DNA of 64,000 nt, taken from assembly GCA_964016885.1 (NCBI GenBank), contig OZ024743.1, positions 33,170,001 through 33,234,000 on the forward strand, in the 5' to 3' direction. The notes below the pieces were generated by a model that was not told the DNA's origin, ran no database searches, and saw nothing but the letters and a program-made list of their open reading frames with translations. Position numbers and translations under genes: made by a program. The stretch is from Eledone cirrhosa. Its lineage: Eukaryota. Numbering within the stretch: the first letter of the stretch is position 1; each line of letters starts with the position of its first letter. Positions 8,949 through 57,960 of this stretch are shown piece by piece.

Positions 8949-9214
8949 ATATATATATATATAAACACATACATGATTACCGTTCAGCGTCAAATATATA
9001 TATAGTACAGAATTTTGGGTTTTGTCTGGCACACACTGTTAAAAACGCTCCAAAATTTTCAATTTAAAATTCATGGAACACAATTGAAAGTAAGACAAAG
9101 ATGGAGATGGAATGCAAATGTTCTCAGAGGTCTAAAATACTTCCATTCATGCCAGAAATCAGTGTTCTCTGCCAACAGTCTCTCTCACTATATATATATA
9201 TATATATATATATA

Positions 9215-9378
9215 AAGTTTATCCCGAGTTCAATCGGGGGTAAGGTACTCAATGCAAAGCAGAGTATAAATATTTGATATAGAAATAGCTTCTACAGGAC
9301 TAAAACTGTTTCATTTGGGAGAAATCATCTGAAGATCTAAAGGTCCCCTGTTCAATCCCGAGTTTCGGCATGCAGGCG
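9215..9378 (-). mobile_element. Short non-coding hammerhead-type element (related to 57309-57504), overlapping a tRNA-Phe-like sequence
   Basis: Shares TAAGGTACTCAAT, AGCAGAGTATAA and TTCTACAGGACTA.AACTGTTTCATT with 57345-57420; minus strand reads CAGATGA..GAAA-CAG..CTG-TA (degenerate core); (TA)n on both sides. Confidence 0.65.
9329..9370 (+). pseudogene. tRNA-Phe(GAA) 3' half (anticodon loop to acceptor end)
   Basis: CTGAAGATCTAAAGGTCCCCTGTTCAATCCCGAGTTTCGGCA closely matches the 3' half of metazoan tRNA-Phe as recalled; upstream GAAATAGCT and TTGGGAGA match its 5' half but are separated by an insertion. Confidence 0.8.
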
Positions 9379-9388
9379 TATATATATA

Positions 9389-10013
9389 TTCACGTGAACA
9401 GCAAAGCATAAATGAACTAAGTGAGAAATTAGGTATAAGAGGAATCAGATGCTGTTTACTCGAGAGAAGACTACGTTGGTATGGTCATGTGATGCGCATG
9501 AAAGACGACAGCTGTATAAAAAAGTGCAGGGCGATCAAAATTGACGGAAGTTACAGAGTAGGCAGATCCAGAAAAACCTGTGGCGATTTGATAAATTCCA
9601 ACCTCACACACTTACACCTCTCTAAGACAATGTCACTGGACTGAGATCTTTGGCGCTACGCAGTAATACAGAAAACCCACCTTGCCTATGTACAAAACGA
9701 AACCTACAGTTAGTAGTCACCTCTTAATCAAATATACACCCCTTCCTACTACCCCAACTCCCCCACCCCCGTCAACACCACCCCTTTCTCTGTAAAGTTA
9801 TGTTGGTACCACAACATCCAGTCCTAAATAAATAAAGTTGTGTAGGTGTCACGACAAAAAAACACACAGTCCACGCTGTAATGTGGCCGTGTAGGTAACA
9901 CGGTAAAAACCTCCCAGTCCACACTGTAAACGTGGTTGATGTTAGGAAGGGCATCCAGCCGTAGAAAACCTACCAGACAGTCCTATACGAGCAAGACAAC
10001 CAATCTTGCCTCA
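9389..10013 (+). mobile_element. RTE LINE 3' fragment
   Basis: Near-copy of 8271-8884 (ORF C-terminus [11 protein letters not shown] and 3' UTR); lacks the terminal tail. Confidence 0.92.
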
Positions 10014-56569: not shown

Positions 56570-57265
56570 CAAATAACGAAACAAAATTAAATTTCGTTTC
56601 GTTTGTAACTCACTTTTGTATGACTGACGCTTAAACAATTAAGTTAAAAATGTACATCTACATATGCATACTGAAATACTAGTGTGTATATGAATACACA
56701 CACGTATACATATGTAGGTGTACAAAGTCTTTCACTGGTCGCTTTACAGTGAGCGGCCCAGCTATTCTGTATGTAAACACACAGACAAACCGGTTTTTAG
56801 AGTCATACTGGTTTTTCGGGGGAACACCTTCCCCCTATTCTCCAGAAAGCCAGACAAGGAATATTGAACTAGTTTCGTTGTTGTTACAACTCATCAGCAA
56901 TATTTACCTATCTACCGGCCTTTCTGGAGAATTGTAAAAGCACATATCGTTATATGCTTTTTCTATGAAAATTAGTAGTGGGCAGACTAATTTGCATAGA
57001 GTGTGAGTACGCACCGGTTCAGCGGAGACGATAAAAACAAATAACGAAACGAAATTAAATTTCGTTTCGTTTGTAACTCACTTTGGTATGACTGACGCTT
57101 AAACAATTAAGTTAAAAATGTACATCTACATATGCATACTGAAATACTAGTGTGTATATGAATACACACACGTATACATATGTAGGTGTACACCTACATA
57201 TGTATACGTGTGTGTCACACTAGTATTTCAGTATGCATATGTAGATGTACATTTTTAACTTAATT

Positions 57266-57270: not shown

Positions 57271-57309
<39 letters not shown>

Positions 57310-57375
57310 GTTATTCCGGGTTGAATCGGAGGTAACCACAGTAAGTAAGGTACTCAATACATAGCAGAGTATAAC

Positions 57376-57960
<585 letters not shown>

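Follow-up and report, generated by a model that had tools for sequence, protein, structure and literature searches.

A two-part island between (TA)n tracts

The window, the whole stretch of 64,000 nt from Eledone cirrhosa that was analysed, contains at 9215-9381 an island with a (TA)n tract on each side, and the island is made of two pieces, the 3' end of a Penelope-like element and the 3' half and trailer of a tRNA-Phe, fused head-to-head (Table 1). Judging from fold and alignment, 9215-9329 is the 3' end of a Hydra-clade element, namely its tail and most of a type I hammerhead on the minus strand, and sequence matching assigns 9329-9381 to nt 32-73 of tRNA-Phe plus genomic trailer, with a tandem tRNA array 84 Mb away as the source. 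The pieces have a single base, 9329, in common with no (TA)n between them, and the TAT at the end of the tRNA piece overlaps the right (TA)n tract, beyond which lies a truncated LINE-like fragment that we take to be RTE-like.

A sequence-only reading of this region had described GAAATAGCT (9282-9290), a 21-nt insertion (9291-9311), CATTTGGGAGA (9312-9322) and AATCAT (9323-9328) on the plus strand as an almost whole tRNA-Phe, with CAGATGA..GAAA-CAG..CTG-TA on the minus strand. Direct reading confirms that all of these words are present, and the blocks do match tRNA genes, but they belong to two pieces and not to a single tRNA that is read in two ways, and the supposed insertion is native element sequence. 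Nor was the element inserted into a tRNA-Phe gene: the tRNA 5' flank, nt 1-3 and nt 24-31 are absent, the 5' blocks are those of the element family and 84 Mb separate the locus from the donor array. Recombination with tRNA-Phe, which was also suggested, holds as a single chimeric insertion and in no wider sense.

Table 1. Features of the island and of its sister copy, in window coordinates.
Feature	Position	Strand	Basis or remark
Left (TA)n tract, target site	9189..9214	.	direct reading; (TA)n also at sister copies
Penelope 'tail', start of the element's 5' leader	9215..9273	-	right boundary approximate
Small terminal hairpin of tail, B-box-like word in loop	9223-9238	-	fold
Pseudo-LTR end with 5'-truncated type I hammerhead	9274..9329	-	fold and alignment
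Element block equal to tRNA-Phe nt 4-12	9282..9290	+	sequence match
Stem I, 3' strand	9292-9287	-	fold
GUA cleavage site	between 9293 and 9292	-	fold
Stem III	9309-9294	-	fold
GAA core	9312-9310	-	fold
Element block (complement of stem-loop II) like tRNA-Phe nt 13-23, 10/11	9312..9322	+	sequence match
Stem II, loop UCCC	9323-9314	-	fold
Hammerhead core G5-A9	9329-9325	-	fold
tRNA-Phe(GAA) nt 32-73, array type, anticodon loop to discriminator	9329..9370	+	sequence match
3' trailer of array tRNA-Phe gene, without CCA	9371..9381	+	comparison with array units
Right (TA)n tract, then truncated LINE-like fragment	9379..9389	.	direct reading
Sister copy, younger subfamily, usual palindromic form	57309..57504	.	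tailed arm and inverted tail-less arm

The 42 nt of tRNA match the genome's own tRNA-Phe(GAA) genes, as annotated by ARAGORN, and a 53-base comparison that includes the 11 nt of trailer leaves two mismatches to the closest of the 163 array units sampled, so that by this measure the tRNA piece is recent; a G-to-A change private to the window piece is also found in 10 array units. The piece carries an intact B box (9350-9358), has G37 and A58 unchanged and ends a few bases before the TTTT terminator of the array. The genome holds 249 matches to a 19-base word of the piece; of the 100 matches listed, 94 fall in the array on the window's own chromosome (C4, ~117.36-117.71 Mb), whose 1259-bp unit holds tRNA-Phe, tRNA-Asn and a degenerate Lys-like gene. 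Unlike the five dispersed Phe loci compared, the piece has the T-stem variant and trailer of the array; a U-C mismatch marks the T stem of the array Phe and is missing from the dispersed genes.

ARAGORN found no tRNA gene in the whole window, and Rfam gave neither tRNA nor hammerhead at 9150-9450. The genome's own tRNA-Phe(GAA) scores 62.9 bits with RF00005; the window locus has no match to this model, no cloverleaf and an A box split by 21 nt. Over the whole window Rfam returned only microsatellite noise and one other hammerhead. This second, unrelated hammerhead (56844-56915, minus strand; HH9, 38.6 bits against a cut-off of 52) has a complete CTGATGA core and lies in a stretch with repeated ends (~56600-57110) that could be a retrozyme-like unit.

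The fusion is found once. A pattern across the element-to-Phe junction has three genome matches, the window locus and two unrelated ones, and a pattern from the array-type Phe trailer into (TA)n matches the window locus only. We rejected a tRNA-derived SINE or Sm-alpha-like family, since the unit of tRNA and hammerhead is single and the two other matches are unrelated. A search for captures of other tRNAs with T-loop words, a pattern that is blind to the Phe type, gave 101 matches, none of them a capture among the 100 listed, which comprise inverted arms with mutations, SINE-like sequences and unrelated ones; none of nine inspected loci contained a tRNA. A further T-loop-word search gave 231 matches, mostly C2 satellite among the 100 listed; the long satellite-like array at C2:414.96-415.16 Mb and beyond matches this pattern by chance. 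Captures of tRNAs other than Phe may therefore exist in this genome.

The element family, its ribozyme and the ends of its arms

A 24-base core of the element has 31,276 exact matches in the 3.0-Gb genome, against 1,273 for the pattern of the window's subfamily. In the 40 best-scored relatives, none of the 39 others reaches past query base 127, and none of 29 relatives inspected runs on into tRNA. Full-length copies (5 of 5; L124, L143-L146) have a 758-codon open frame, which from its first Met encodes 713 aa; directly upstream of it is the same hammerhead, which in L144 appears again past a long 3' region. The reading frame is flanked on both sides by hammerhead-bearing pseudo-LTRs. The predicted protein combines a reverse transcriptase (YRDD at 347) with GIY-YIG (YIGMT at 602) and contains RWR (38), DKT (116), CNCLNKETC (566), CDLC (666) and CMH (694), although the Pfam GIY-YIG scores of 17.4 and 13.9 bits are below the cut-off of 22.6. 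The single frame with C-terminal GIY-YIG and the DKT, CxCX5C, CxxC and CxH motifs, all read from a sister subfamily and not the window's own, are marks of the Hydra clade (PMC8557442), and the layout also agrees: a (TA)n target, a pseudo-LTR with hammerhead, a tail and an inverted 5' copy. L121 and L143-L146 are young, near-identical full-length elements with open 758-codon frames, and their 3' region holds ~2 kb of TA/TG microsatellite. The endonuclease region has 62,589 first-look candidates in the genome.

In L144 the 3' repeat stops right after the hammerhead, whereas the 5' repeat continues, ahead of the reading frame, through sequence like that of 9215-9273; because only the 5' repeat carries this stretch, we identify it as the Penelope 'tail'. 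In the window copy the tail has a 13-nt deletion that is common to two other copies (L002 and L004). A word in its hairpin loop (9226-9235) had been taken for a second B box, but its next base is G and not the invariant C, and younger subfamilies have GTTGAATC instead.

The strand of the ribozyme is that of the element, i.e. the window's minus strand. The first core strand retains G5-A9, with U4 changed to A (CAGAUGA); tRNA sequence stands in place of U4 and of the 5' strand of stem I, and a C-G pair of stem II is broken. Core and stem I are therefore incomplete for the type I hammerhead, and because of these three defects the window hammerhead is predicted to be inactive. Changes in the core generally abolish hammerhead activity. 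With core U4 and stem I lost on one side and the A box split on the other, both halves of the island look dead, and the locus is probably a functionless relic. The hammerheads of the family have the CUGANGA and GAAA core, three stems, UH site and compensatory changes of type I. In 12 aligned copies picked for variety, 94.9% of the pair cells are standard pairs, compared with 28-45% in slid controls, a figure that carries no probability since the copies are related by descent; two stem I pairs have changes in both partners, stem III does not vary at all and loop II varies freely. Family-wide, loop II marks successive subfamilies, with stems II and III fixed. Rfam reported no hammerhead family at cut-off for copies L013 and L144, and on the plus strand the CUGAAGA of the tRNA has no GAAA after it from which a hammerhead could be built.

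How sister arms end was determined for 85 distinct arms of the subfamily. An inverted second arm of at least 16 nt follows in 44 and a short one in five; 15 end in microsatellite, 14 continue upstream and seven are joined to unrelated DNA. None ends in a tRNA, and none in a short stretch of foreign sequence that (TA)n closes off, which suggests that capture is rare. In 70 of 77 truncated arms the stop lies no more than 25 nt from loop II, a count that may overshoot into the palindrome, and five of them stop at the exact base of the window copy. That 70 of 77 end at the hammerhead core or stem I may reflect a strong stop, or RNA templates that are short and reach only to the 5' edge of the ribozyme; the outcome is thousands of 150-250-bp palindromes.

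The sister copies likewise sit in (TA)n, and the tRNA piece holds the position and polarity of their usual second arm, with its sense strand running into (TA)n. It starts with CTGAAGAT, the sole 8-mer of tRNA-Phe within one mismatch of the core word CTGATGAT, with which 27 of the 85 sister arms (22 long, 5 short) restart. The sister copy in the window is homologous to the island, as the sequence-only reading had recognised (82% over 97 nt), and consists of a tailed arm (57309-57439) and an inverted tail-less arm (57442-57504), with the CTGATGA core complete in each; the differences that had been called tRNA-matching are mostly differences between subfamilies. Directly left of this second hammerhead element is a perfect inverted repeat of ~150 nt (57111-57259). 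At another locus (L247, C8:59280200-59281100) an element arm that is fused to a SINE-like repeat recurs as an inverted duplicate, in which (TA)n closes off 45 nt of the SINE, in appearance a local rearrangement.

Likeness to the tRNA 5' half and origin of the joint

The element sequence of the window resembles the missing half of the tRNA. Compared with tRNA nt 1-31 it scores 30, which is reached by none of 5000 dinucleotide shuffles (maximum 26; p=0.0002), and block 9282-9290 agrees with nt 4-12 at 9 of 9 positions. Elsewhere the top score is 25 in the 85 subfamily arms and 19 in 81 unselected arms. Two bases account for the excess, A at 9287 and T at 9316, where the first 100 subfamily matches have G in 95 and C (a CpG) in 89, respectively, and the tRNA-like base in 5 and 11. 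Both tRNA-like bases occur together in 8 of the 1,273 subfamily matches, compared with ~7 expected under independence, so no conversion is needed; the seven other copies have no tRNA attached. The sequence-only reading would have taken a solitary tRNA-bearing copy with an insignificant 5'-half match for a chance juxtaposition. The window copy is indeed the only one with tRNA, but its 5'-half match is significant.

The proposal that the hammerhead family arose from an antisense tRNA-Phe gene, with the window copy as its relic, draws on this likeness, on a typical subfamily copy that also weakly resembles the tRNA 5' half (p=0.014) and on the presence of GAAATGGC in the oldest subfamilies. We nevertheless find it barely credible. 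In the seven copies of other subfamilies the likeness never reaches significance (p 0.23-0.88), only the window copy runs into tRNA-Phe, and the D-arm match hangs on a 4-nt loop that takes 25 forms in the 81 unselected arms, with GGGA in just one. Within-group distances, from which subfamily ages were taken with 3-11 copies each, are 0.147 for AAAA, 0.113 for GGGA, 0.058 for TTTA and 0.041 for ATTA (5, 11, 6 and 10 copies); as GGGA falls between AAAA and TTTA/ATTA, the tRNA-like loop is a middle stage, and the oldest group, AAAA, has no D-arm match. The subfamily trees, built on 130-200 nt without an outgroup, have weak inner support, and a metagenome scan for outgroups gave 161 pattern matches, none confirmed. 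Among the entries of File S2 of PMC8557442, Hydra-clade hammerheads of cnidarians, echinoderms, a crustacean and a hemichordate share the core layout, with unrelated stems and loops and without the match, and the tRNA piece itself is recent. An origin of the ribozyme from an antisense tRNA was rejected, the likeness residing on a freely varying loop and missing in older subfamilies; by its layout, the ribozyme appears to be inherited from the Hydra clade.

Starting from the observed identity, orientation and boundaries of the pieces, their donor array and their single occurrence, the reading that we favour, and to which we give an even chance, is one insertion in which the enzyme cut both (TA)n strands and copied its own RNA and a pre-tRNA-Phe from opposite ends. 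The top strand would have been extended on the element RNA from the tail and would have broken off in the hammerhead core, as most sister arms do, while the bottom strand would have been primed by TAT on the UAU of the precursor trailer and extended towards the anticodon. The two cDNA ends would then have been joined, probably aided by the chance likeness between the element cDNA and the tRNA 5' half, and the same likeness may have led to two bases being converted to those of the tRNA. Neither self-cleavage nor transcription as a tRNA would be expected of the product.

A single event is argued for by the tRNA piece holding the place and polarity of the inverted arm, by the absence of (TA)n between the pieces, by a junction at the family's stop hot spot and by the Phe chimera being one of the eight copies with both tRNA-like bases. 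A pre-tRNA template is argued for by the retained array trailer, the missing CCA, the end just short of the terminator and the unchanged copying of G37 and A58; in mature tRNA-Phe these bases are modified and reverse transcriptase stalls there. In vitro, another Penelope protein in purified form has been shown to cleave and extend both strands, initiating at sites without homology to the target (PMC11167929), and antisense tRNA-half chimeras of LINE-1 have been ascribed to twin priming (bioRxiv 10.1101/2025.02.02.635956). Against this reading, the case is a single one; a search for the empty site gave none, the left flank returning only 69-89% paralogues, and the (TA)n flanks make any target duplication unreadable. 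The joint lies outside the matching blocks, with one shared base only. That the sole Phe chimera lies among the few best-matching copies suggests that the likeness either favoured the joint or became closer through it, an argument tempered by a wide scan, which favours striking coincidences. As isolated RNAs the two halves form a strong duplex (-23.9 kcal/mol, p=0.003); when whole molecules may fold on themselves, 4, 8, 3 and 7 of 60 shuffles bind equally well and the Lys-like array gene binds better than tRNA-Phe. Tethering by RNA pairing is thus unsupported once self-folding is allowed.

A DNA-level template switch could also account for the joint and, although unlikely, is a serious contender. 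A palindromic copy or intermediate ending in ...AAATCAT-CTGA would have broken, its 3' end would have paired with a tRNA-Phe gene of the array, and after ~50 bases of copying it would have returned to (TA)n at TAT. The start of the tRNA piece at its one near-match to CTGATGAT fits this well, as do the resemblance of a palindromic copy to the tRNA gene in three blocks, ~280 targets on the same chromosome (estimated from the array span and the 1259-bp unit) and the two tRNA-like bases, which mismatch repair would explain; TAT is the first 3-base target match for a DNA template too, so that RNA and DNA templates are indistinguishable. The switch requires, however, an invasion 84 Mb away on short, broken homology, whereas the piece lies wholly inside the precursor transcript in the sense expected for a cDNA, and breaks in the anticodon loop are the usual ends of LINE-1 chimeras (bioRxiv 10.1101/2025.02.02.635956).

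An origin of the tRNA fragment independent of the element, either as a patch or as sequence lying at the site anyway, with a coincidental 5'-half likeness, is quite improbable in our view. With more than 31,000 core matches in the family, seven of 85 arms joined to unrelated DNA, seven copies that have both tRNA-like bases without a tRNA, and a wide scan that picks out coincidences, chance has much room; but a single (TA)n tract houses both pieces, with no (TA)n between them, they meet at the stop hot spot, no other array-type Phe trailer abuts (TA)n in the genome, and few copies match the missing tRNA half as well as the host copy does. An assembly or library chimera is very improbable: although no listed contig from four other runs, which have a small share each, are made from other samples and include no listed RNA run, bridges the junction, the piece exactly matches none of the 163 sampled array units (2 differences at best) and both pieces show age-like divergence.

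Comparison with known systems

Self-priming has been proposed for the head-to-head ends of Penelope-like elements (PMC3846280), whereas the purified enzyme extends both target strands (PMC11167929). A second arm copied from a foreign RNA is impossible by fold-back, and therefore a catalogue of chimeras, in a genome with more than 31,000 copies, would be a direct test of how head-to-head ends form. The wider claim that the second arm is a separate cDNA made off the other target strand on any UAU RNA, not a fold-back, that this locus, with a pre-tRNA as second template, proves it and that chance likeness makes the join, we hold to be somewhat more probably wrong than right. On that wider claim, Penelope enzymes would pick up transcripts of polymerase III, which would be an initial step on the way to SINE-like hybrids. 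The locus is no evidence for a ribozyme growing out of a tRNA. tRNA capture is known for LINE-1; for Penelope-like elements we found no report in print in a search that left most subscription journals outside.

A close parallel is offered by the tRNA/LINE-1 chimeras of Law and Burns (bioRxiv 10.1101/2025.02.02.635956), which likewise consist of half a tRNA antisense to the element with a break in the anticodon region, are rare (21 human loci) and have been proposed to arise by twin priming. These are mostly 5' halves (nt 1-37) with target duplications, whereas here a 3' half with genomic trailer is joined to a Penelope-like element in (TA)n. The schistosome Sm-alpha/Sj-alpha hammerhead SINE-like elements (PMC2770079) also combine tRNA-related sequence and a hammerhead in one repeat; they are amplified families, while the present unit is single, with its parts on opposite strands, a broken core and no A box. 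Non-LTR retrozymes (bioRxiv 10.64898/2026.07.22.740005) similarly carry a type I hammerhead from a Penelope pseudo-LTR, but as direct repeats in tandem that include two or more complete hammerheads, in contrast to the lone truncated end described here.

The element type and its hammerhead are already described, and the family may be catalogued already. The Hydra clade of Craig et al. 2021 (PMC8557442) shares the C-terminal GIY-YIG, DKT, CxCX5C linker, CxxC and CxH, the (TA)n targets, a canonical hammerhead near the end, the tail and an inverted truncated copy. It has RWK where our element has RWR, and its members are under 3 kb, compared with ~5 kb here, where the long 3' region (~2.7 kb in L144) is filled with microsatellite; the hammerhead also differs from the one listed for the cephalopod family Hydra-1_oBim. 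What sets the window copy apart from the clade as described there is that its second arm is foreign.
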